Source: a virus
Taxonomy: Duplodnaviria; Caudoviricetes
Strand: one strand, 5' to 3'
DNA: 64,000 nucleotides
Virus record (IMG/VR): IMGVR_UViG_3300031760_003956
Location: 30,226 to 94,225 of that record
Positions 2,230-16,759 of this stretch are shown piece by piece (the stretch's first letter is position 1; each line of letters opens with the position of its first letter). The translations under genes and the position numbers were made by a program. The notes under the pieces are model-generated. The model was not told the DNA's origin and ran no database searches. It saw only the letters and a program-made list of their open reading frames with translations.

Positions 2230-5200
2230 ATGGCAGATGAAGATTTCAGACTACAACTATCAGCGGAAATAGGTAGTGACTCTATAAGTAGGGTTAAATC
2301 TCAACTTGACGAAATACAAAAGTCAGCTAAACCGATAACCTTAACAGGTGATATAGGGGCGTTGACTAAAGAAATTGGAGAGTTGAGGTCACAGCTTAAA
2401 TCTGTTAGTGCTGTTAAAATAGACGCTAATATTAAAACGGCTACAAACTCTTATAAAGAATTAGTTAATGTTGCTAAACAAATTGGTAATAAACAAATCA
2501 AGATTGCTAAACTTGATACACGGACAAATACTAATGAAATTAAAGCGTTACAGGCTGAGATAGATACTTTAACGGCTAAGGGTAAGGCTTTAATGGGTTC
2601 TTTCAATGGTAAGTTGTCGGCTGAACAGTTTAAGCAATTAGAGAATACAATAAAGGAAATTCAAACTACGACTCAGCAGACTATAGATGTTATCAATGCT
2701 AAGATGAAAGATAAGTCTGCGGTTGAGTTTCAAAAACAGGCTTTTGAAGATTTAAAAGCTAAAATAAAAGAAGAAGAACGGGCTGTCAGCGAATATAATA
2801 AAGTTCTTGAACAAATGAAGCGTTTGCAGTCTACTACTGAAAATGCTGGATATAGGGATTCAGTAGGTACTGCGACTATTGAGGGATACAAAACAAAACT
2901 TGAAGAACTTAAAGCTAAAGAGGTAGAGGTTCGTGAGAAATTTGCTGATTTAATCCCACAGGAAAGTATAACTAAGGCTGAAACTGGTTTTGCCAATATA
3001 ACTGCAAATATCGACAATATTGTTAGTAAAGCAGAACAGGCAAAAGAAAAACTCGTAGAGGCTATTCAGGGTACTCTTGCTAATGGTAATGCTTCAAATT
3101 ATGATGTGGCAATATCAAAAGTTAGTCTTGATATGAGCAAACTTTCTGCGGTTAGTGATGAAACACGGGAGAAAGTTCAGTTACTTAGAGATACTTTAGT
3201 TGAAATGCGTACTGCGTCTGAAAGTGGTGATGTTGAAACTCTTATTGCTAAAGAAAAAGAATTTTCAGATACTTTAAAGCAAGTACAAAATGAGTTAAAA
3301 ATCACGGCAGACAGAGAAGAAGAATTAGCACAAGCGGAGAAATTACTTAATGATAGAGCGATTCTATCTAATCAAATGGGCGTGTGGTTGAAAGAAAATA
3401 CTGCCGCTACAAAACAATTTGGTAATCAAATTAAAATACTTCAAACCGAGGTTAAGTCTTGTGATAATGTAAGGCTCGGTCAAATAAGACAAGAGTTTAG
3501 AATGATTACACAAGAAGCTAAAATGGCTGGTAAAACAGGTTTGGCTTTTACTGATAGACTCGGTTATCAAATAAAGAAGTTGTCAACGTATTTTAGTGGT
3601 CTTTATATTATTATGAGTACCTATAGAACTCTTAAAACAGGTGTTGAAACTGTTATTGAGTTGGATACGGCACTCGTTGATTTGAAGAAGACTACTGACG
3701 GTACTACTGAGCAACTTAATGAATTTTACGAGAGTGCGTCTGAGATTGGTAAGCAGTTGGGAGTTACGGCGAAAGATGTAATTCAAGCAAGTGCTGACTG
3801 GTCACGTCTTGGTTGGCTTCGGCTCGACCCTATATATAGAAATATATATAAGTAAATTCAGCTTTTATCGGGAAATCTCCTGAGAAGGACAATTCCGAGG
3901 GCAAGATAGAATGTTTAGTATATTCTAAACCCGTAACGAGTAAGTTTTACATACAGTAATGTATGTTTGCACGCTGAACACCTAAATACGAAAGTACAAG
4001 GTGATGATGTACTCTGCTCTGCAACTATAATCAAAATATAATATGAAATTGCAGAGGTAGGCAGAAATGACCTACCCCTTTCTTTTTGGAAAGAGTAACA
4101 AAAGGACTCAATTAAAGACGCTATTGAAATGGCTAAAACGTCATCTATTTTTGAAGCTATCTCACCGGATTTGGATATGAATGAATCGACCGATGGGTTG
4201 GTTTCGGCTATGAAGGCAAAACGAAAGTTTATGCCCTGTTGTATAGTAATATGCAACTTGTATACATTTAACTACAGGTAATCTCTAAAGCCTTGCACCA
4301 CAATAACGGAGAAATCACGTTATGATGGCACGAAAGTAGAAACAACGTAAGGATGATATAAGGTCAAAAGCCTAAGTATTGTGATAATGAGTGTTCTGTA
4401 GCCAAGTACCCTAACGTATTCCGTAGACCATACGGTATTAGTCGAGGGTAAAGGTTCAACGACTATTCTCAGTAGAGTTATGGACTTGTGAATAAGGGTG
4501 GAAATCCCGAATATCCATAACAATAGAAGTACGGCACAATCGCAAAGGTGTGAGTGAAAACCTCTTAAATGGAAAAGGTGTACCCCTATTAAATAGGGTG
4601 AAGAAATAGTCTATTCTTATATGAAAATATAAGTACAAAAGATTTAAAATTGAAGCAGATGACGCTTTAGATGGAATTGCGAGTAAGATTAATGCTATAG
4701 GTAATTCACAAGCAGTCAGTAACGGAAATATCGTTGACTTCCTTACTCGTTCATCTTCTGCTATGGCAGAAGCTAACAATACTTTAGATGAAACTATTGC
4801 GTTAGGAACGGCAGCAACAGAAATTACGAGGGACGCAGCTTCCGTAGGTAATGCTATGAAGACAAAACATTGTCTTTATATACAGAAATGTATATATAGA
4901 ACACATTTAATTGCAGGTAATACCTAAAGCCTTGCACCACAATAGCGAGGAAACTACGCTATGATGGTTTGAAAACGTAAGGATATTACAATGGTTGTTC
5001 TGCAACGAAGCACCTAAGTTAGTAATAATATGGTGAACGCTCAACGACCACTCCCTTGTCGGGTTGTAGGTTTACGAATAAGGGTAAAATCCCGAATAAC
5101 TACAGCAACAGAGGTACGGCACAAGCTAATGGTGTGGGTGAAATCCCCTTAAATGGAAAAGGTGTGGTTGCTATTCTGTTTAATACAGAATGTGATTAAG

Positions 5201-8200
5201 AAATGGTCTACTCTTGCGTGAAAGCGTAAGTTATCAATTGTGATAAGGTGTATGTTGCGAGTACACTTAATATTTGGAATAAGTATGAGAATTAGAGGCT
5301 ATGATGAAAGCACCAATGAATTTATTGGTGGCGTAGAAGTTCTCGATGGTAAAATAGCAAATCTTACGAAGACTGCTAAAAACGGATTTGGTGGCGTTTC
5401 TTTATTTGCTGACGAAGCAAAAACAACATTTAAAAGTACAACACAAATTTTAAGAGATATATCTGAGGTTTGGGATGACCTTACCGACAAAAATCAGGCA
5501 AAATTACTCGAAGCTCTTGCCGGTTATCATACGTTAGCCGGATTGTGTAGTAATACACAAAATAGTACATATTTAATTGCGTTGGTTGCCTAAAGCCTTA
5601 TACTACAATAATCGAGAAATCAGATTATGAGAGTTTAACAACATAAGGATATTACAATGGCTAATTCGCAGCGAAGTACCCTAACATTATTCTTAAAACA
5701 AAAGAACAGTTAAGCTGAGGGTACACGTTCAACGACCATTCCCGATAGGGTTGTAATAATAGAATAAAGGTGGGAATCCTGAATAGTTACAACAACAGAA
5801 GTACGGCTCAAATATATGGAGTGAGTGAAAACCTCTTAAATGGAAAAGGTATGCCCCTATTTTAAATAGGGTGAAGAAATGGTCTAAACTTATACGAGAG
5901 TATAAGAATGGTTATATATAAAAAATATGAGATATACTTATACGAATGATGATATTGATTTTTTAAGAAAATATTATCCAAACGGGGATTGGGAGAAAAT
6001 TGAACAAAGATTCCCGTTTTTATCAAAAACAGCAATATATAGAAAATGTCAAAAATTAAATATTGCTTCAAATAATACGCATAGAAAAGATTTTGACAAT
6101 ACTAAAAATAGACGTAAGTGGACGGAAAAGGAAACTAAAATATTAATGCAAAATTATAGTTATATTCCTTTTGACGATTTAATGAAATTATTACCAAATC
6201 GCACTAAAGATATGATTAATAATAAAGCAAAAAGATGTAATTTATTATCTTATCAAAAAATTACATCAAAATGGAAAGACTGGGAAGTTGAATATATACA
6301 AACTAATTGGTTTTTAATTCCCGATGTGATTATTGCGAAAAACATAGGAAGAACACAAAGGGCGGTCAAATGGAAACGAGAGCAAATGGGATTGTATAGA
6401 CAAAATTTTGAAAGTTTTTCTTATCCAACGATTTCAAAATATTTACGAGGTCAAAATCAACAATGGAAAAAAGAGTCTATGGAGAATTGTAATTATAAGT
6501 GTGTATTAACCGACAGTAAAAGTTTTGAGATACATCATTTATATGGTGTGAGCAATATTATAAATGATATTTTTGATTTATACCCTAAATACAAAGATAA
6601 ATCTTTTAAAGACTACTCTGAAAAAGATTTATCTTTTTTATTAACTGAATTTTTAAGAATACAGAGTTTATATCCGCTTGGTGTATGTGTGGATAAAAAA
6701 TTACACGTTTTGTTTCACAGTATGTACGGTCAATACTTTAATACACCTGAACAATGGTATAGATTTTGTGAAGATTATAAGAAAGGAGTGTATGAAGAAT
6801 ATATATAACCATTAACAGAAGTTGTGACTCTGTTTAATAAAATTGAAACGTCAAGGTCAAGTTGTTGCAGCTATGCTCAACAACTTCCAAACAGTAGAAG
6901 ATTCTCTTAATACAATGCAGAATAGTGCTGGTAACGCTATGCAAGAAATGTCAATTATTCAAGACAGTATTGAGTATAAAATGAACGCATTTTCTCAAAC
7001 TGCAACAGGAATATGGCAAAACCTTTTCAAGCGTGGCGATATTGGTGCTGTTATTGATTTATTTACAAATTTCTTATCAATAATAGATAAGATTACAGAC
7101 CACTTTGGTCTACTCGGCACAGCCGTAGGTATAACCGCTGGTATATTATCAGCAAAATTTGGCGTGGGTGAACTAATTAAACAGTTCTGTTTACTTATGA
7201 CACTAAGGAACGAATACGCTCACGAAACCTTTAACTAATAGTAATATAAACGAGATTGTGTTTGCTCGTATAACGGTTTATCGTTACACAATCAAGAGGG
7301 GTTTAGAAAAATAGGATAAACTGATATAAGTTAAAATTCTTATATCAATAGACTAAGACGTTTTATATGTTAAGCTACATAATACATATAAAACTATTAG
7401 CAGCCATTACCTTACGAGAGGTAGGTTCAGAGGACATAAACCTACACGGTGAGAATCGTGAATGAATGTTGCAAACTGTACCCGACAGTAGTTATGAGTT
7501 GGGGTAAAAATTTAACCATTGGCTAAATGGTGTGTCAAAAATAGTGGGATACTTCTTCCCTGTTACCTGAGCAAAAGAAGTTAAAATAGAAATTTTATGT
7601 ATCATAATGCACAAATAACACTTGAAAAACGTGCGAAAAGTGTAGTGAAGTAGGTTGAAAAAAGTGCGAAAAGTGTGTTTTGACGTATTTTGTTCACTTT
7701 GTATTTGTGCAATATGACGAATAAATAGCAACCAAAAAAGGTTGCATATAGAAAACGCAACCAAAAACGGTTGCGTTTGTTATTATACTGAAAGGGTATA
7801 ATTTGATTTTTACGATTCGGATTATACCTTAACGGGATATTTCCCATTTCGGCAATTTTTTCGGATTTGGGGAATAGATTGCCGATTTAAAAAGAAAGGA
7901 TTGGTAAAATGATATTTTCGGTTGATAGGTTTATTGAATTATCAAAATCAAAAATAAAAAAGAAATTTAAAAAAGTATATCTTTATGATGAATATAATAA
8001 TGCAACTGGTAGAAACAAAGAAAGGCGTTATTATTATAATAAAGAAATTATGTTATTTTTAAAAGAATGGGAGATTGAATTAACATATAAAACATTGATT
8101 CATAAGGGTGTTTTTACGGAGAAAGAATTGTCTTTTGAACAATTTATAAAACTATTTTATATAAAAATATTTGAGAATCGGTATTTATGTAGATTTATAG

Positions 8201-11200
8201 ATATAAAACCGATGATAGATTTTATTAATAGAGTTCGGCAAAATAATGATTAATCATTCTCCATAGGTTATTGCAGAGGTATAATTTTTGCCTTAATTGT
8301 TGTTTCTTTGTTTCATTAAATTCATTCTTGACTTCATTAGAAAGAATATTATTACGCTCTTTCAAACAAAGGACAACAAAAGGTGCGTAGAATATTGCGT
8401 CTGATATATTTATAAATGTATTATTATTCATTTTATTTATTATATCTTGGCGATAAGAAAATTCTTGCATAATAAATATACCGTCTATTTCTACGGATTC
8501 TTTGATTAGCTTAAATTCTTCTTCTGTTAATTTTCTATCTACAAAATCACTCATATTCTTCCCTACCTTAAAACTTATAACCACAATTCCGGCAAACAAA
8601 TTGACTTCTTGCGGTTTAATTAGTAACTAATCTACTTTATATTCATATAAACTTGCTTTCCAAGTACCATTTTCACGGCGTTGACAACTAACACTTTTTA
8701 TTTGAGGTTTACCGTTAATAGTCATATTGAAATCAAGATAAACGGTATCTTCATCTATTATATTGTAATCTCCTGTATAGACCACACTACTTACTTCTCG
8801 ATATATGCTCATAACTCTACTACAGTATGACATAGCTGCTCTTTCTGCTTTTTTGAGATAGTATGTACTCATTTGAGGTTTTGTATATTCTTGTTCGTAG
8901 TCGGTGTCGGAATAAGAATTTGTATTAGTCGGGTTATCGGTTGTATTGCTTTTCTTACAAGTAGTAAGAGATATAACTATTCCAATTACTACGATTATTA
9001 TTATTACTATTATTGAAACAAAAAATACGATTGAATTTTTCTCGGATTTATCTTTATTTTGTAGCATAATATAGCCTCCTTTGGTATTTAAACCAATTAT
9101 ATATTATCTTTATACACAATTCAAGTAATTTTGATAAATTCAGGTTACGTCTTTATATTCAGTTTGATATTCAAAACCGTTGAAGACGAATCGAAATTTG
9201 CTGGAATTAGAATAAAGAATAACTTATTAAGTGGTATAAAAGCAATAGCGAGTGAAGCCCCGAAGATTGATTTGGGTAAGAATTTTTCTGCTAATTTAGA
9301 TAAGCAAACAGAGTATTTTACTTCATTTAGAAATGCAGTAAATGAAGGTATGGCGGTTGATGAGGCTAAAACACAGTATTTATCAAGTGCTATGCAAGCA
9401 ACTCGTGATTATGTAAATGCGACAAACTTAGCAGAACAAAGCGAAGAAGGACTAAGAACCGCCGTTACTCAAAGTCAAGTGGCTTTAGTGGCACAAGGTA
9501 ATAGTCTTAGTAATACAAGGTCGTTGATTGCCGAGTATAACTCTGGTTTAAACACTACAGGTAATGTATGTAAAGAAACGGGATTAAATCAAACACAATT
9601 TGCACAAGCGGTAGCACAATCACGAACTGGTTTAGGTAATTATTTAAACAATTTAGACGGTGCGAAGGCTTCTATGGGTGGTTATATCGCTCAACTTGTA
9701 GGTGCTAAAATTGCTACGTTTGCTTTAAACGCTGTAACAACATTACTTAATGCTACTATTAGTATGGGTATTGGGCTTATTGCGTCAATGCTTGTAAGTG
9801 GAGTAGTTAGTTGGATTGATGATATAATTCATCATACTGAGAAACTTATTGAAGCCGGTGAAGAAGCTGAAAATAAAGTTAAGGAAATTAGCGAAACTTT
9901 TGAAAAACAAAAGTCTGTTATAAGTGAATCAACAACGCAATTTGCTGAATTGGCTCAGGGTGTTGATATGGTTACTGGTAAAAACAAATCATTGTCAACG
10001 TCTGAATATGAGGCGTTTTTATCAATTAGTAAAGACTTGGCAGAACAATTTACCGACCTTCCTGTTATTTACGATGAAAATGGCAATGCTATTGTTCAAC
10101 TTAACGGTAATGTCAATGATGTTACAAATTCTTTAAAGGAACTATTAGAGGTTGAAAGAGAAATAGCCAATCAAAAAATTGCAGATGAATTACCAAAGAT
10201 TTTTGATAAAACTAAGGCACAAAATGAAGTTTTAGAAGACGAATTATACGATATACAATCTAATTTATGGTATAACAAGTTAGATAAAGCTGGTGAAAAG
10301 CGACTTTCGATAGATGTAAATGGTTTAGATTTAGATGAAGTAACGAAGATACGAGAAAAATACGAGGCTTTATTTAAAAAATATAATATCCCAGCTTTAT
10401 TTAATAAAGGACAACAGGTTTGGAAAGATGATAAACTTGTATTTGATACTTTGTATTTTGATTTAAACGGAACTGTAAATGTTACTGATAAATTGAAAAA
10501 AGAATTAGAAAAAGGTACTTACGAAATTCAAAAAGAATTTGAAAGTAAATTAAGTGGAAATACTTTTCAAACACTTGTTAATAATGTTAATAAAAAATCT
10601 GCTGATAAACAAAACGAAATAAAGCAGAATTGGAGCAATTTAACTTCTAATATAAATAAATGGCTACCTACCCAAACCGACTATTCTGCTCTTTCGGAAG
10701 AAAGACAAAACCTTATCCAACGGTCTATTAACTCGTTGGATTATACTGCATTAAATTTTGATAAATGGGAAGACGCTGAAAAATATATTAAAGACCATTT
10801 ATTAAAGGTATTAGGTAAAGATGAAAACGGTAAATTTAATTTTGATATTGAAAAATATACAGATTTATCGGAAGCCTTTGACTCATTTAAAAAAAATAAA
10901 ATATCTCTAAAAAAATATCAAGAGTATTATAATACTGTTAAGACAAATCTTGAAGGTATTAAGGGCATTACAAAGGAAACCAAAAATGCTATATTAAATG
11001 ATTTTAATACTATTGGTTCATCGGGAGAAACTTTAGATAATGCTTATGAAAGAATTTTTAAACTTTCTAAAGGCGTAATATCGGTAAAAGACGCTGAAAA
11101 AGAGTTAAAAAATTGGAAGTACGATGATATTTCAGCTTTATTTAAAATTGACGCTAAAACTATAAAATCTTGGGATGATTTAAAAAACAAGATTAAAGAG

Positions 11201-14200
11201 TTTAAAGAAACCGATACAAGCAATTTTGATGAAAATGCTTTTATTGATGATGTTAAAAGGAGAGCAGACGCTTATTCTGATTTTCTTAAACAGTCAGCAC
11301 AACAAGGCGGTATTAATTATAAAACTGAAACTGATGAAAAGGGTAATGTAAAATCTCTTGGTGTAGACGCTCTTGCTTCTTATTATAGTCAAATTAAAGG
11401 TTATGATGAGGACAAACTTATTAAACGTACTGCACAAGGTATTAAACTTAATACACAAGAACTTACAAGATTAAATAATGAGGTTGCTAAACAAGAAAAG
11501 AGCAAAGTTGATGAAAGGATTGAAAAGTTACAAAAGAAACTTGGAAATCTAAATGAAAAGATTAATTCTTGTACGGACGCAGAAGAAAGATTAAACCTTG
11601 AAAATGAACGTAGTGGTATTCTTGATGATATTGAAAACACCGAACTACTTGCAGCCAATTATGAAGCACTAACTTCTAAGTATCAGGCTTGGCAAGACGC
11701 TTTGAGTAATGGAGAAGAAGGAGATTCTTATGACGCTATAAGAGATAAACTCAAAGATATTAAAGAACTATACGACAAGGGTTTGGTTGGTACAAATGAG
11801 TTTAGAACTTATGTTGATTTACTGACGTTTAAGGATTTATCAACGGCTAATGTTGATGATATTGTTAAGGCTTATGAGAATCTTGACAATAATATTAAGA
11901 ATACAAGTTATAGCGTAAAAGACTTCCTCAAAGAAGATGAACAGGGTGTAAATAACTTCTTGTCTGCTATGAAAGAATTAGGTTACTATACACAAGGTAA
12001 AGATGGTGAATGGACTCTTAAAATTGCAGATAAAGAAAGTCTTGCAAAACAGCTTGGTATTAGTACGGAATTTCTTGAAAACATTGTACAGAAGTTAGAT
12101 GACTACGATTTCACCGTAGATATTGATATTGGTGGAATGTCAGATAATGACTTACAAAATGCTTTTGATGATGTTCGTAAGAAATTAAAGAAAGCAAAAC
12201 TCACCGATATGACATTTTCGTTCGATGAGAATACTACTGAATCACAGGTTGACGACCAACTTAAAGAGATTCGTAGGATTATTCATAAGAAGTGGACTAC
12301 CGTAAATGGTGAAGGTCAAGAGGTTATTAAGTTTGACATTGATGATGAAAATGCTAAAGCTGCTCAAATTATTCTTGCTAATCTTTTAAAGAAAAAGCAA
12401 GAATTTCAAGATAGCGGAGCGTTGGCGTTAAAGGTTGATGTTGACAAAGACTTAAAAGACCCGAAATCTGACGCTGGTAAGGCTATTAATAACATTCAAT
12501 CCTTTAATAAAGGTATGAATAAGTATCAAGTTGATATTCAAACAGGTACGGATACGAAAAAATCGACTAAGAAAATTACTAAGGCTGTTGATGGTCTTAA
12601 TAGTATTAAAGACAAAAAAGTTCGTGCTGAACTTGGACTTGATGATAAGAAATTTAAGAAGGCTGTTAAGAATATTAAGGCTAAAGTTAAAGCTGGTGCT
12701 GATTTAGACCAAAAAGATATTGACATTGTTAAATCCAAAATCAAAGGTATTGACGCTAAAGCACTCGTACATCTTGGAGTTGATAACAAGGACGTAGCTG
12801 AGGAAAAGAAACGTCAAGAAGGCGAAGTTATCAATAAAAAAGTTCAATTTAGCGTTGAAAAAAGTGAAGTTCTTAAATTTGAGAAAGAAGACCACGATGT
12901 AAAGGCTATTCTTAAATATGCTCCACAGATTGATGAAGACGCATTTACCCGATTAGTTAATCAGGCTAAAACGAGATTACAAAATCAGTTAAAAAATGTT
13001 AATCCTACGCCAAAGTCAAAGAAAAAGAAGAAAGCTAAAGTCAATGGTACTGCATTTGCAAGGGGTAATTGGGGTGCTAAAGACTCCGGTAGGGCTTTAG
13101 GTGGAGAACTTAAACCTGAAATTCACGTTTTTGCTAATAGTGGACGTTGGGAACTTATTGGCGAACGCTCTCCTGAGTTCTTTAATTATCGTAAAGGCGA
13201 TATTATTTTCAACGGAGAACAGACCGAACAGTTACTTAAATATGGTAAGATTAATTACGGTAGTAAACGTGGTAATTCATTCTTAGGTGGTACTGCGTTT
13301 GCTGGTTCTTCTGCTCGTGGTGGTATTAATCTTAATAGTCAAGGATTAATACCTAAATCTAAATCTACGAAGAAATCTTCATCGAGTTCTAAATCATCTT
13401 CTTCATCTTCTAAAAGTAAGAGTAGTTCTGATAGTAAGAGTGATAAGGACACACCACTTGATAAGTTTAAAGATTGGTTTAGTAAACTGTTTGATTGGAT
13501 TGAGGTTAAACTTGAACGACAAACTGATAAAATTAGTGACTATATTACTAAGGCTGAACGTGCAACAGAGCGTGGTAGTTATGACGCTTCTGTTAAGAAT
13601 TATCGTAAAGCTATAAACACAACAAGTGGGCTTGTTGAAACCGAGGGTAAAGCAAGTAGGCGGTATAAGAAACAAGCTAATAAAACATTGGACGTTGCTG
13701 TTAGCAAAGGCGTTATTAGCAAAAAGAGAGCAAATTCGATAAAGAAACTTGTTAAGTCGGGTAAAATTGATATTAGTAAGTATAGCGAAAGTGTTAGAGA
13801 AGTTATAGGTGATTATCAACAATGGTATGACAAAGCCAAAGAAGCTAAAAAATCTATCGGTGAACTTCATAATAATATTCGCACTTATATCAAAGACCTC
13901 AAAGATGTTCGTGACGCTCAACGTCAAGCAAAACTCGATAAACAGAGTACATTCACGGGTATTGGTACAAGTGGTTTTGCTTATACTTCTGCGTTTAAGA
14001 ATAGTCAACTTAATTATCAAAACTCACAGCTTAATGCTCAAAATTCTGCTTATAAAACTGAAACTGATAAAGTTGTAAGTGATTCTAAGAAAATTGGTAG
14101 TAGTGCTACTTCTGCTCTTGGTAAGTTAAAGCCGAAGAAGAATCAGAAGAAATATAAGCAAGCTATTAAAAATGCTAAAAATGCAATTAAAGCTAAAAAG

Positions 14201-16759
14201 AAAGTTAAAGACGCTGACTTAAAAACTATTAAAAAGCATAGTGTCAAGACATATGAGAAATTATATGCTTATAATCTTTCTTTGGATAATGTTGAAACGG
14301 CTAAACTTGAACAAGCGGCTAATTATGCTGAAACGAGTAATCAAAAATTTGCTAATCAAGAAGCTAAATATGAGAACGACAGGCAAAAGAGCGAAGACAA
14401 TATTAGTCTATTCCGTCAAAGAGCCGATAATGCTACTTCTGCAAGTGGTAAGAATACTCAGTTAGATAAAGTTGTTGCTCAGTACAATAAACAACAAACA
14501 GATAGACAAGCTGAGATTAATGATTTTGCGAATCAAGCAACGGCTTTTGGTAAAACTATTTCTAAACAATCTACTAAGGGTAGCGGTGATTATAGTCAAT
14601 ATATTACTCAGGCAAAGAATAACGTAACTGCTGGTACTACAATTAGTGCTTCTGTTCTCGCTAAACTTGCTGAGGGTTATAGTAAAGGTAAGATTACCGC
14701 TGGATTCTATCAGGCTTGTGTTGATTATAATAACGCACTTCAATACAAGAAACAAGCGGAAGACCAACAAGAGATTGAAAACGAAACAATTATAGCCGAA
14801 AAACGTGCTATTGGTGAAGAGAAGATAAGCAATATTCAGAAAGATTATCAAAATAAACTTTATAATAATAGAGTAAATGGTTTGACCTCTGAACAGTTAG
14901 GTGCTATGCGTGATATTAAGACCGCAAAAGGATTATCGCTTGACGCTAATGACTATCAACAGCAGATTCAGCTAAGTCAACAACAGAGAAATATTTTGAT
15001 AGCAGAACAACAAGATTTAATAAATCAAATGAATCAAAATATTGCTGATGGTTTGTGGACTTATGATTCTCAGGAATACATAGACGCTTCAAAAGCACTT
15101 GATGAAATCGGTGTTTCGATTGCCGGTTGTACAAAGAATGAAATTGAATGGAATAATGCGATTATAAACTTACCATTTGAGAAATATGAGAAAGCACTTC
15201 AAATCATCGACAAAGTTAAAGGTGCTTGGAGTGCATACGCAAGTATGATGAAGACGATTGGTAAGGATTTAGATAAGAGTGTTGAAACTGCTTATCTCCA
15301 ACAGATAGCACAAGAAACCGAACATTATCAAACCACAGTAAAGCAAACTGCGGAGGCTTGGGCTAATTATCAAAAGGCGTTAGCTGATTCTGAGGGTGTT
15401 TATGGTGGTAAGACTGCTGAGGAATGGTTTGGTGAGTATAACGATTTTGCGGCGGCTCAATATTCTTCTTATGAGAATATTAAGAAAATTAAAGATGAAC
15501 TTCGTGATGAGTTCTATCTTAAACCTTTTGAAAAAGCTATTGAAAAAGCCGAGAAACTTAATGGTTTGTTGGAGGGTATCGCTGAATTTATTGACGAGAG
15601 TATGTACTATGATAAAGACGGTAAGATAACCGAATATGGTATTGCACAGGTTGGTCTTTTGACTGCTGGTTACGAAAAAGCAAGAGAGCAAGTTGGCAAT
15701 TATCAAGCAGAACTTGATGAAGTCAACAGACTGTATGCAGAGGGTTATTATACTGCCGATGAGTATGCTGATAAGGTTAATGAAGTACAAACTAATATGC
15801 TTAACTCAGCTAAAGATATGAAGTCTTCTATGAATAGCATAGTTAATATGTATAAAGATATGGCTAAAGCTGAGTTAGATAGTTTGTTTAAGTTAATCGA
15901 AACTCGCCGTGAGGCTATTTCAGCGAAAAAATCTTACTATGACTTAGACAAAACGCTCCGTGATAAAAACTCAGAAATTCAAAATCTTGAAGCACAGATA
16001 GCAGCACTTGAAACTATGGACGATTTAGAGTCTAAGGCTCAACGTGCAAGATTACAGGCTGACTTAAAAGAGAAACAGGATGACCTTAACGAAACTGTAA
16101 ACGACCACTTAATTGAGATTAGTCAGAACGCTCTTGATGACTTGAAAGACAGTTTACAAGACGCTTTTGATGATAAGTGGGAGCATATATTTACTGATTT
16201 AAGTCAAGTAACACAGCTTATGAGTGCTGCTAACGCACTTACTAAGGGTTCGACTTTAACTATTAATAATGCTCTTAATAAGTTACTTGGTTATTATGGT
16301 ATTGACCCGAACAAAGCACAATTAAGTGATGTTGTATCTACGGCTTCTGCCGGATACGCAAGTGGTACAAGGTCTGTATCTCAAAGTGGGTTAGCTTGGA
16401 CTCAGGAAGGACGTAAACCTGAGTTTATTGTTAGAAAATCTGATGGTGCTATTCTAACTCCTTTAAGCAGAGGTGACGGTGTAATTCCTAACGACCTAAC
16501 TGATAACCTGTTTGCTTGGGGTAAGATTACACCCGAAGAATTTATCGGTAAGACGGGTGCTGATTATAACACACCTGAAACCAATGTCAACAATAATGTT
16601 TACAATAATTACGATAGTTTGATTAGAGTAGACGGTAATGTTGACAGTACAGTAATTACAGATTTAAAGGCGTTTGGCAAACAATTTTACGAGGACTCTT
16701 ATCAATACACACACAGACGTATTGTAAGTGATTTGAAGAAAATTGGTGTTAAACGATAA
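2230..16759 (+). CDS. Tail tape-measure protein, ~3360 aa after splicing; join(2230..3814,4106..4217,4642..4863,5278..5524,6846..7169,9167..16759)
   Basis: Exons sum to 10083 nt (3361 codons). Junctions restore tape-measure-type sequence: ADWSRLG-Y-SIKDA, VSAMK-A-FKIEA, GNAMK-T-ISMRIRG, LEALAG-KRQGQ, KFGVG-IFKT. Long coiled-coil; followed by Dit-like and tail genes. Confidence 0.88.
3815..4105 (+). ncRNA. Group I intron 1 in tape-measure gene (291 nt, no ORF)
   Basis: Exon ends in U3814 paired with G3826 in P1 (UUCG-capped); P3 TTCAGC/GCTGAA; P7 GAGTA(3938-42)/TACTC(4010-14); terminal G4105; splicing gives T|AC = Tyr in frame. Confidence 0.88.
4218..4641 (+). ncRNA. Group I intron 2 in tape-measure gene (424 nt, no ORF; C-G at 5' splice site)
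   Basis: R motif GGTTCAACGACTA; P7 GACTA(4461-65)/TAGTC(4607-11); P1 GGC|A with TGCC and a GAAA tetraloop; terminal G4641; GC|A = Ala in frame. Confidence 0.88.
4864..5277 (+). ncRNA. Group I intron 3 in tape-measure gene (414 nt, no ORF; C-G at 5' splice site)
   Basis: P7 GACCA(5046-50)/TGGTC(5204-08); P1 AAGAC|AA with TTGTCTT; terminal G5277; AC|A = Thr in frame; strongly similar to intron 2. Confidence 0.88.
5525..6845 (+). mobile_element. Group I intron 4 in tape-measure gene (1321 nt) encoding an HNH homing endonuclease
   Basis: P1 CCGGT|/GCCGG with U5524-G5537; P10 ACGTT(5531-35) pairs exon AACGT; P7 GACCA(5734-38)/TGGTC(5880-84); ORF looped out by a perfect 12-bp stem 5908-5919/6801-6812; terminal G6845. 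Confidence 0.9.
5927..6808 (+). CDS. Intron-encoded HNH homing endonuclease with N-terminal Myb/SANT-like repeats
   Basis: Repeats YTNDDIDFLRKYY / WTEKETKILMQNY / WKDWEVEYIQTNW; C-terminal CVLT...EIHHLY...GVCV..KLHVLFHSMYG. Confidence 0.82.
   Translation: MRYTYTNDDIDFLRKYYPNGDWEKIEQRFPFLSKTAIYRKCQKLNIASNNTHRKDFDNTKNRRKWTEKETKILMQNYSYIPFDDLMKLLPNRTKDMINNKAKRCNLLSYQKITSKWKDWEVEYIQTNWFLIPDVIIAKNIGRTQRAVKWKREQMGLYRQNFESFSYPTISKYLRGQNQQWKKESMENCNYKCVLTDSKSFEIHHLYGVSNIINDIFDLYPKYKDKSFKDYSEKDLSFLLTEFLRIQSLYPLGVCVDKKLHVLFHSMYGQYFNTPEQWYRFCEDYKKGVYEEYI
7608..7886. repeat. Cluster of direct repeats and hairpins inside intron-5 cargo
   Basis: TTGAAAAA(C/A)GTGCGAAAAGTGT at 7622-43 and 7655-76; GCAACC-N6-GGTTGC at 7728-45 and 7757-74; long stems TGCACAAATA/TATTTGTGCA, GGTATAAT/ATTATACC, TCGGCAAT/ATTGCCGA. 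Confidence 0.8.
7909..8253 (+). CDS. Hypothetical basic protein (intron-5 cargo)
   Basis: 114-aa ORF with RBS GAAAGGA; Lys/Arg/Tyr-rich; no motif recognised. Confidence 0.6.
   Translation: MIFSVDRFIELSKSKIKKKFKKVYLYDEYNNATGRNKERRYYYNKEIMLFLKEWEIELTYKTLIHKGVFTEKELSFEQFIKLFYIKIFENRYLCRFIDIKPMIDFINRVRQNND
8225..8554 (-). CDS. Hypothetical protein (intron-5 cargo, antisense to tape measure)
   Basis: ORF 8225..8599 on the track; more likely start ATG at 8554 (MSDFVDRK) after AAGGTAGGG. Confidence 0.55.
   Translation of the reverse strand: MSDFVDRKLTEEEFKLIKESVEIDGIFIMQEFSYRQDIINKMNNNTFINISDAIFYAPFVVLCLKERNNILSNEVKNEFNETKKQQLRQKLYLCNNLWRMINHYFAELY
8627..9067 (-). CDS. Single-pass membrane protein, moron/superinfection-exclusion-like (intron-5 cargo)
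   Basis: N-terminal hydrophobic helix IVFFVSIIVIIIIVVIGIVISL, then Thr/Asn-rich linker and small extracellular domain; RBS AGGAGG. Confidence 0.7.
   Translation of the reverse strand: MLQNKDKSEKNSIVFFVSIIVIIIIVVIGIVISLTTCKKSNTTDNPTNTNSYSDTDYEQEYTKPQMSTYYLKKAERAAMSYCSRVMSIYREVSSVVYTGDYNIIDEDTVYLDFNMTINGKPQIKSVSCQRRENGTWKASLYEYKVD
9096..9124 (-). promoter_or_regulatory. Sigma-A-type promoter driving the antisense cargo genes
   Basis: TTGAAT (9124-9119), 17-nt spacer, TATAAT (9101-9096), upstream of RBS AGGAGG and ATG 9067. Confidence 0.75.

Follow-up and report, generated by a model that had tools for sequence, protein, structure and literature searches.

Group I introns of phages are usually seen as selfish elements with no cargo beyond a homing endonuclease, and the accessory genes known as morons usually lie between genes. 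In the nrdD (sunY) intron of phage T4, the open reading frame (ORF) reportedly sits 3′ of the catalytic core, in a peripheral loop of the P9 region, and encodes on the sense strand the homing endonuclease I-TevIII. A gene unrelated to intron mobility, rps3, is hosted by a group I intron of the fungal mitochondrial large-subunit rRNA. Closer to the case described here, the group I introns TMP-IVS1, IVS2, and IVS3 are known in the tape-measure protein (TMP) genes of prophages of the Bacillus cereus group (Tourasse and Kolsto 2008, PMC2504315). IStrons (CdISt1 and BcISt1; Tourasse et al. 2014, PMC4227781) reportedly carry an IS200/605-family transposon that moves the element. Here, we analyzed a 64-kb stretch of DNA (the window), taken from a 94-kb IMG/VR virus record with an estimated completeness of 68%, and in particular the fifth and largest interruption of its TMP gene, at positions 7170-9166. 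We favor, with a probability of about 0.62, an explanation in which the TMP gene of an SPbeta-like phage is here interrupted by a group I intron, the loop of which is a slot for exchangeable accessory genes.

As reportedly in the T4 nrdD intron, the core would be complete before the insertion, and the 3′ splice site would be returned by P9.0, P10, and a long-range pairing; unlike that intron, the one in the window carries several genes, two of them antisense and none endonuclease-like. The rps3 gene is a single, fixed host gene on the sense strand, whereas the cargo of the window is a variable multigene set that is partly antisense. The likeness to the TMP-IVS introns (PMC2504315) is greater: these are also of the self-splicing type, occur at several sites per gene in TMP genes of Bacillota prophages, include different introns fitted to one site via P1 and the internal guide sequence (IGS), and in some cases lack a complete endonuclease gene. 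However, they fall into subgroups IA1 or IA2 and are either compact or left with remnants of an endonuclease (PMC2504315), whereas the window family lacks P7.1 and P7.2, is missed by the Rfam model RF00028, and holds in a loop of its P9 region 0.5 to 3 kb of variable, partly antisense, self-promoted cargo that is not of the endonuclease type. As in IStrons (PMC4227781), a group I ribozyme would render inserted protein-coding DNA harmless, and the added DNA lies toward the 3′ end of the intron; unlike IStrons, the window intron stays at one homologous site, and neither tnpA nor tnpB of the IS200/605 family was found in it. The cargo also recalls prophage morons, which are small variable genes with their own promoter, often encode membrane proteins or lipoproteins, and lie inside or beside late operons. 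The Ltp-type lipoproteins of Streptococcus thermophilus phages (PMC3952083) are an example of such morons and superinfection-exclusion genes. Classical morons are placed between genes, whereas this cargo lies inside the coding sequence of an essential gene, where it would be tolerated because the ribozyme removes it from the mRNA. A full-text literature search found no description of phage group I introns with variable, independently promoted, partly antisense accessory genes. What is new here is the kind of cargo and its arrangement; group I introns in prophage TMP genes have already been published (PMC2504315), and the label "candidate new system," given to the element in an earlier note made from the letters of the window, is therefore an overstatement.

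The search of IMG/VR with a 16-mer core pattern returned 71 loci, mostly chance matches; about 11 were real intron loci, and several of these were the same contigs or duplicates. Searching the intron against 50,697 phage records (megablast and blastn) gave no match. Five additional introns of the window type were collected at the same codon (L005, L006, L081, L082, and L083), making six with the window; together with L007 and L008, which carry a separate kind of intron at this site (L007-type), they constitute the eight same-site introns compared below. The 5′ 430 nucleotides (nt) of the six window-type introns were aligned (alignment A1), and RNAalifold predicted 103 pairs in this alignment, 27 with compensatory changes. 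In a curated structure of 102 pairs, to which P3 and P7 were added as pseudoknot partners, 97.4% of the cells were paired (36 to 46% in controls where the pairing partners were slid by 1 to 3 columns) and 29 pairs were changed on both sides (3 to 8 in the slid controls). None of 500 shuffles reached the observed value. Compensatory pairs were present in each of P2, P3, P4, P6, P8, and the three P9 hairpins, and they made up six of the seven pairs of the inner helix of P2 (A1 columns 103-109 with 145-151). All seven pairs of P1, as well as P9.0, P10, and the terminal G, were kept in the six window-type sequences; the guide reads GAAUAU in L006 and L081 to L083, which gives a P10 of 6 bp. The 3′-tail motif (TCARGY, 11 to 18 nt, CAGU(A/U)UUG) was also kept in the six despite unrelated flanks, and the motif GGUUCAGAG.ACAUAA was common to window-type and L007-type introns.

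Long-range helices in a single sequence of this AT-rich DNA were not above chance: 4 to 96% of random cargo windows yielded a helix as long as the best one between the P9 zone and the 3′ tail. The case for the long-range helix comes solely from comparison, because its register is kept and its sequence covaries in relatives. We found it in three versions: ACCUGA/UCAGGU in the window, L005, and L006; GCUUG/CAAGC, extended to 7 to 10 bp, in L081 to L083 (with a shifted register in L082, GCAAGCAC); and CUGACCA/UGGUCAG in the L007-type introns. In the latter family, the exon and the guide co-vary, from UGUGGGU/GCCCACA in L007 to GGCGGGU/GCCCGCC in L032. Such patterns are the marks of a predicted ribozyme fold kept under selection for splicing. 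The comparison shows the 5′ 400 nt to be a conserved core of the ribozyme type, with predicted P1 to P9; the far-off 3′ splice site returns to this core through the predicted pairings of P9.0 and the covarying long-range helix, and what lies between the strands of that helix is shown as a terminal loop with freely changing content. Direct reading found P1, P10, P9.0, the terminal G, and the long-range helix at the positions that the earlier note had given them (Table 1). Its suggestion to look in related phages was also borne out: the core and the 3′ end were conserved, and the content of the loop differed in every lineage.

The splice junction was examined at the protein level. Removal of 7170-9166 fuses ...SAKFGVG to IFKTVEDES... 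in frame. Homologs of exon 5, 45 to 94% identical, are found inside long TMPs, and five uninterrupted TMP homologs (P0004 to P0008; 51 to 56% identical over exon 5) read ...KG(Q)(G/N) IF(D/N)V... exactly at the junction. Four other homologs end a few codons past the same "VG"; an insertion was found at that point in each of the three such contigs read (L007, L008, and L009), and the fourth truncated homolog has the same layout by gene table only. In all eight same-site introns, excision is in frame and leaves 600 codons without a stop, and unspliced read-through halts after 22 to 35 codons. No Shine-Dalgarno (SD) sequence or credible start codon was detected upstream of exon 6 in any of these eight introns, the sole start candidate common to all of them being a UUG that contains the terminal G. 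These two observations make independent translation of 9131-16759, an alternative that the earlier note had raised, unlikely. The covariation of the fold, the match of the junction to intron-less homologs, and the co-variation of IGS and exon in relatives thus support 7170-9166 as a group I-type intron. On contig L009, from position 3544 onward, this TMP codon is the site of a third group I-like sequence, which is unrelated to the others; its P1 is a perfect helix of 8 bp (AUGUCGGU/GCCGACAU) with U·G at the junction. As judged from their sequences, three different introns share this TMP site.

The cores of the five relatives are 72 to 97% identical to that of the window at the nucleotide level (72 to 76% in the distant ones), and exon 5 of the more distant hosts shows only 27 to 30% protein identity. 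The core is therefore far better conserved than the host gene. Spread by hitch-hiking on the ORF of intron 4 of the TMP gene, which is HNH-like by motif only, was rejected as a general explanation, as the TMP genes of L082 and L008 lack any intron before this site.

The loop between the strands of the long-range helix (7571-9139, 1.57 kb) contains a noncoding module, ORF A in sense, and ORFs B and C in antisense, which agrees with the repeat/hairpin region, one sense ORF, and two antisense ORFs previously noted in a loop of about 1.57 kb. None of the three ORFs could be assigned to a known homing endonuclease family (LAGLIDADG, GIY-YIG, HNH, His-Cys box, or PD-(D/E)xK) by Pfam, PHROGs, or PADLOC, and the fold models of the cargo proteins gave no endonuclease match. 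The cargo of the relatives gave none either, apart from one subthreshold PHROG HNH row (L082, E = 9.4e−3). The claim that the cargo is unlike a homing endonuclease or a transposase holds in that no such signature was found by Pfam, PHROGs, PADLOC, or fold models, and the structure search for decayed versions of either gave them no support, with the model of ORF A being poor. ORF A has just 3 matching proteins among 1.84 billion representatives, and its AlphaFold2 (AF2) model (predicted local distance difference test [pLDDT], 61) gave no fold match; its reading as a decayed endonuclease found no support, which is a weak negative at this pLDDT. ORF B is convergent with ORF A, with an overlap of 29 nt, and is confidently predicted to be a helical bundle: its ESM Atlas model has a predicted template modeling score of 0.79 and generic helical matches only. 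A decayed transposase was rejected for ORF B, since the Pfam match to Y1_Tnp (E = 0.013) covers only 33 residues and the model is a helical bundle. ORF C is predicted to be a membrane-anchored surface protein with an NTF2/cystatin-like ectodomain. Its AF2 model has a pLDDT of 74 overall and of 77 to 93 per 10-residue block over most of the C-terminal domain, and the top Foldseek matches were cystatin-fold and NTF2-like domains, all with an E of 0.04 or weaker. ORF C had no significant match in Pfam or PADLOC, and its weak PHROG matches (phrog_8545, "Sie-like," E = 1.7e−4, 22 bits; phrog_4980, E = 2.5e−3) both span the membrane helix. Two further minus-strand ORFs (7492-7764 and 7602-7847) were dismissed as translations of the ribozyme and terminator hairpins.

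The noncoding module is 81 to 92% identical to that of L006, and terminator-like sites are enriched in the scanned region (4 found versus 0.9 expected). Within the module, a stretch at 7581-7785 is conserved in L005 and L006, and the Rfam model fstAT matches weakly on the minus strand of that region (18 bits, E = 8.7); the stretch might encode a small RNA or a module resembling type I toxin-antitoxin systems, or serve simply as an insulator.

The turnover of the cargo is best seen in the closest relative. Window and L005 are 96.6% identical over 6843-7911, and beyond that they match only at 8544-8618 and 9160-9228 within a divergent patch at 7912-9566. In addition to the cargo, this patch takes in the first 400 nt of exon 6 (9167-9566), and 95% identity resumes at 9567. 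L005 has the same flanks, alleles of ORFs A and B that are 30% and 23% identical to those of the window, and a double zinc-ribbon gene in place of ORF C. The convergent, overlapping ORF A/B pair (7909-8554 in the window, 6776-7451 in L005) consists of divergent alleles between flanks that are 97 to 99% identical, a pattern that recalls cognate pairs under diversifying selection. L006 lacks the A/B pair and encodes a homolog of ORF C (64 to 67% identical) fused to an N-terminal zinc ribbon. The loop holds one lipobox protein in L081, one zinc-ribbon protein in L082, and two multipass membrane proteins with a zinc-ribbon protein in L083. L007 carries a weak HicA-like ORF, a clear HicB-SocA antitoxin (HicB_lk_antitox, E = 2e−9; SocA_Panacea, E = 9e−17), two further ORFs, and a zinc-ribbon protein, and L008 carries yet another set of ORFs, including a zinc-ribbon gene. 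Across the eight introns, lengths range from 982 to 3,509 nt, with 0.5 to 3 kb of cargo. Variable, non-endonuclease cargo in a putative group I intron loop is thus well supported. The zinc-ribbon family comprises more than 700 clusters, and the examples examined lie outside introns, next to helix-turn-helix (HTH) repressor genes of integrative elements and in a chromosome; the family therefore consists of general accessory genes and is not tied to introns. L028 and L050 (provirus G005) have an L007-type intron at the same site in which the P6 loop is enlarged by a further insert of about 300 nt and an antisense zinc-ribbon gene follows the core.

All eight introns have, on the antisense strand 26 to 54 nt from the 3′ end, a putative host-type promoter matching 9 to 12 of 12 consensus positions (at least 10 in seven of them), followed by an SD sequence and an ATG. 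In the window, the promoter of ORF C and the minus-strand terminators at 7762-7728 are consensus matches. SPbeta late genes are transcribed by YonO as one operon, with little pausing (PMC5467207), and the phage of the window encodes a homolog that shares 49% identity with SPbeta YonO. During the lytic cycle, this polymerase would read through the late operon, including the intron, which would then self-splice together with its cargo to give an intact TMP. The antisense cargo would be transcribed from its own sigma-A-type promoters by host RNA polymerase, either in the prophage state or soon after infection, and the terminators would stop this transcription before the ribozyme core. The loop would be a neutral slot for moron-like genes, with exclusion, toxin-antitoxin, or surface functions all plausible. 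Cargo could be swapped by recombination in the conserved flanks and might also move together with the intron, given that the latter is much better conserved than the host gene. Losing the cargo would be difficult, as any imprecise deletion would disrupt an essential gene. The earlier note had pictured such a cargo platform, with exclusion among its functions. The intron, its variable cargo, and the antisense genes with their own putative host-type promoters and SD sequences stand; as for exclusion, we found only the weak "Sie-like" matches of ORF C.

Several points weigh against this explanation. RF00028 gave no match at an E of ≤10 to the whole window, to 6500-9700, or to the 481-nt core (7140-7620), and the window intron does not reach the gathering threshold of this model (50 bits); for the L007-type intron that shares the site, the score is 13.9 bits (E = 0.53), over P4-P6-J6/7 only. 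In the six window-type introns, G7432 faces G7471 at the expected guanosine-binding G-C position of P7, and the catalytic competence of this type is consequently not assured. P7 is invariant in six lineages otherwise rich in compensatory changes; five of its pairs form, plus G7430-C7472, and a shifted register, with G7432-C7472 paired and G7471 bulged, is possible. The P7 of the L007-type introns is canonical (GAGCAU/GUGCUC with a bulged A). Furthermore, a terminator-like hairpin lies on the sense strand inside the intron (7753-7778), PADLOC found no defense-system match among ten cargo proteins from the window and its relatives, and the temperate state of the phage is something that we infer from its SPbeta-like genes, one tyrosine recombinase ORF, and a relative classed as a provirus by IMG/VR. 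The G·G pair, the lack of an Rfam match, and the internal hairpin would also fit a dead relic, as would a TTG at 9131 that opens the downstream frame. TMP would then be made as two polypeptides, with a stop at 7236-7238 and a start near 9131, and the cargo would be an intergenic moron island. We regard this as highly improbable, given that 29 compensatory pairs over six lineages point to a fold under selection and that relatives either preserve P1, P10, P9.0, and the long-range helix or show covariation in them, down to the exon-guide pairing. The frame is moreover kept across the junction in eight of eight introns with no SD sequence before any candidate start, and the intron-less homologs are continuous at the exact junction point.

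Two other explanations accept the intron and differ in what the cargo does. The recurrent antisense gene at the 3′ end could be the intron's own mobility or maintenance factor, an unrecognized homing or RNA-binding protein with the other genes as hitch-hikers; this factor would be the double zinc-ribbon protein in most relatives, replaced by ORF C in the window. A zinc-ribbon ORF does occupy the same place and orientation in both intron types (L005, L082, L083, L007, L008, L010, and L028/L050), the better conservation of the core than of the host gene implies horizontal spread and yet no known endonuclease is present, and the protein is weakly similar to Zn_ribbon_IS1595 (E = 1.4e−5) and to the Cas12f1-like TNB domain (E = 9e−5), with only the zinc fingers of the TnpB and IS1595 models covered by the matches. 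However, the protein has no nuclease motif, and its middle part is charged and of low complexity. The size of the family and its occurrence outside introns also speak against a dedicated factor, and the zinc-ribbon protein is missing from the window, L081, and L006 (in which only an N-terminal ribbon is joined to an ORF C domain), yet their intron is intact and covarying. We consider such a factor improbable. It is unlikely, in our view, that the cargo consists instead of early or lytic genes (for host takeover, antidefense, or phage competition) transcribed by host RNA polymerase before YonO is made. The sigma-A-type promoters fit early expression equally well, zinc-ribbon genes outside introns are divergent from HTH repressor genes, which is the usual early-gene side, and the very fast divergence of the ORF A/B alleles between conserved flanks is as in an arms race. 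Yet an antisense placement in a late operon is conflict-free only while the operon is silent, and membrane or lipoprotein cargo (ORF C and L081) and the L007 toxin-antitoxin are typical of prophage-expressed genes. Nothing on either side is decisive between early and lysogeny-phase expression.

The explanation of the intron as a slot for exchangeable genes can be extended to a joint reading, which we hold more tentatively and at somewhat less than even odds: a horizontally spreading family of group I introns would be a dedicated gene-cassette platform of SPbeta-like phages. This would combine a noncanonical guanosine pocket, a P9-region loop built for foreign genes, terminators that insulate the core, and a fixed-position antisense promoter of the host type beside the 3′ splice signals. 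Cargo, comprising exclusion, toxin-antitoxin, and surface proteins, would be expressed from the prophage's silent late operon and exchanged between phages by recombination in the intron flanks or by movement of the intron, its place within the essential gene guarding it against loss.

Table 1. Predicted features of the intron, its cargo loop, and the flanking exons, in window coordinates.
Feature	Position	Strand	Description
TMP exon 5	6846-7169	+	Start approximate (3′ end of intron 4); ends ...SAKFGVG; ORF 6843-7238
P1 5′ strand (CGUGGGU)	7163-7169	+	7 bp with 7218-7224; U7169·G7218 at the 5′ splice site, which follows U7169
IGS	7212-7224	+	7212-7216 form P10 with 9168-9172 (5 bp); 7218-7224 form P1
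P2 domain	7225-7304	+	Closing helix AAACCUU/GGGGUUU with hairpins inside
Catalytic core	7312-7472	+	P3-P8 region
P3	7312-7315 with 7441-7444	+	Contains a compensatory pair
P4-P5-P6	7321-7425	+	P4 and P6 each contain a compensatory pair
J6/7 and P7 5′ strand	7426-7437	+	UUCAGAGGACAU
P8	7445-7450 with 7455-7460	+	Contains a compensatory pair
P7 3′ strand	7466-7472	+	Invariant
P9.0 5′ strand (AAACUG)	7473-7478	+	Pairs with CAGUUU at 9160-9165; kept in 6/6 window-type introns
P9 hairpins	7481-7503, 7515-7531, 7546-7560	+	2, 3, and 2 compensatory pairs, respectively
Long-range helix	7561-7570 with 9140-9149	+	9/10 pairs; core ACCUGA/UCAGGU
Conserved noncoding module	7580-7908	.	Promoter-like site, repeats, terminators, inverted repeat with TATAAT, ribosome-binding site of ORF A
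Promoter-like site	7581-7608		TTAAAA-16-CATAAT
Direct repeats	7622-7643, 7655-7676		Two repeats of 22 nt
Terminator hairpins	7728-7778		Bidirectional
Cargo ORF A	7909-8253	+	114 amino acids (aa); preceded by a ribosome-binding site
Cargo ORF B	8225-8554	−	109 aa from ATG 8554; longest frame to TTG 8599
Conserved island	8544-8618	−	Beginning of ORF B plus its ribosome-binding site and the sequence before it; 98.7% identity to L005 between unrelated flanks
Cargo ORF C	8627-9067	−	146 aa; N-terminal membrane helix, linker, alpha-plus-4-strand domain
ORF C promoter and SD	9076-9124	−	TTGAAT-17-TATAAT (9124-9096) and AAGGAGG; consensus match
3′ tail	9140-9166	+	3′ strand of long-range helix (9140-9149), linker, 3′ strand of P9.0 (9160-9165), terminal G9166
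TMP exon 6	9167-16759	+	Begins IFKTVEDES...

The phage carrying the window is SPbeta-like, as judged from its genes: besides YonO, matches to YomN, YomU, YomW, and YomX occur among the neighboring genes on related contigs. The hosts of the nearest isolates by protein similarity are Clostridia and Bacilli, and the phage is probably a temperate phage of gut Clostridia. Its TMP gene (2230-16759) has five interruptions, all in the first 5 kb. Introns 2 to 4 score 36 to 48 bits against RF00028, slightly short of its 50-bit threshold. Intron 4 contains an ORF of 293 aa that is HNH-like by motif reading alone, with only a subthreshold Myb match in Pfam. Introns 1 and 3 are missing from the close relative L005, in which the frame is continuous at both sites, and intron 2 of L005 contains a 451-aa ORF that is missing from intron 2 of the window. 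The tyrosine recombinase ORF (1139-2173; Phage_integrase, E = 8e−20) immediately precedes the TMP gene and shares the strand of the late genes, and a different ORF takes its place in L005. At L004 (G000:C1:11607-14866), the gene of a YonO-type RNA polymerase is apparently split by another intron; the N-terminal part of 486 aa shares 49% identity with SPbeta YonO and is followed by a weak RF00028 match (20 bits).

If this intron family splices, it would represent a third arrangement next to endonuclease-bearing introns and morons between genes, in which a ribozyme allows variable genes with transcription of their own to be housed safely and stably in the interior of an essential structural gene. 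This would raise the questions of how a ribozyme copes with kilobases of cargo, with transcription of the opposite strand, and with terminators inside the intron and of whether a G·G at the guanosine site permits catalysis. It would also explain the "split" TMP genes, with odd small genes between the halves, that gene callers report in many gut phages, and the loops of such introns would constitute a pool of unannotated candidates for exclusion or defense.

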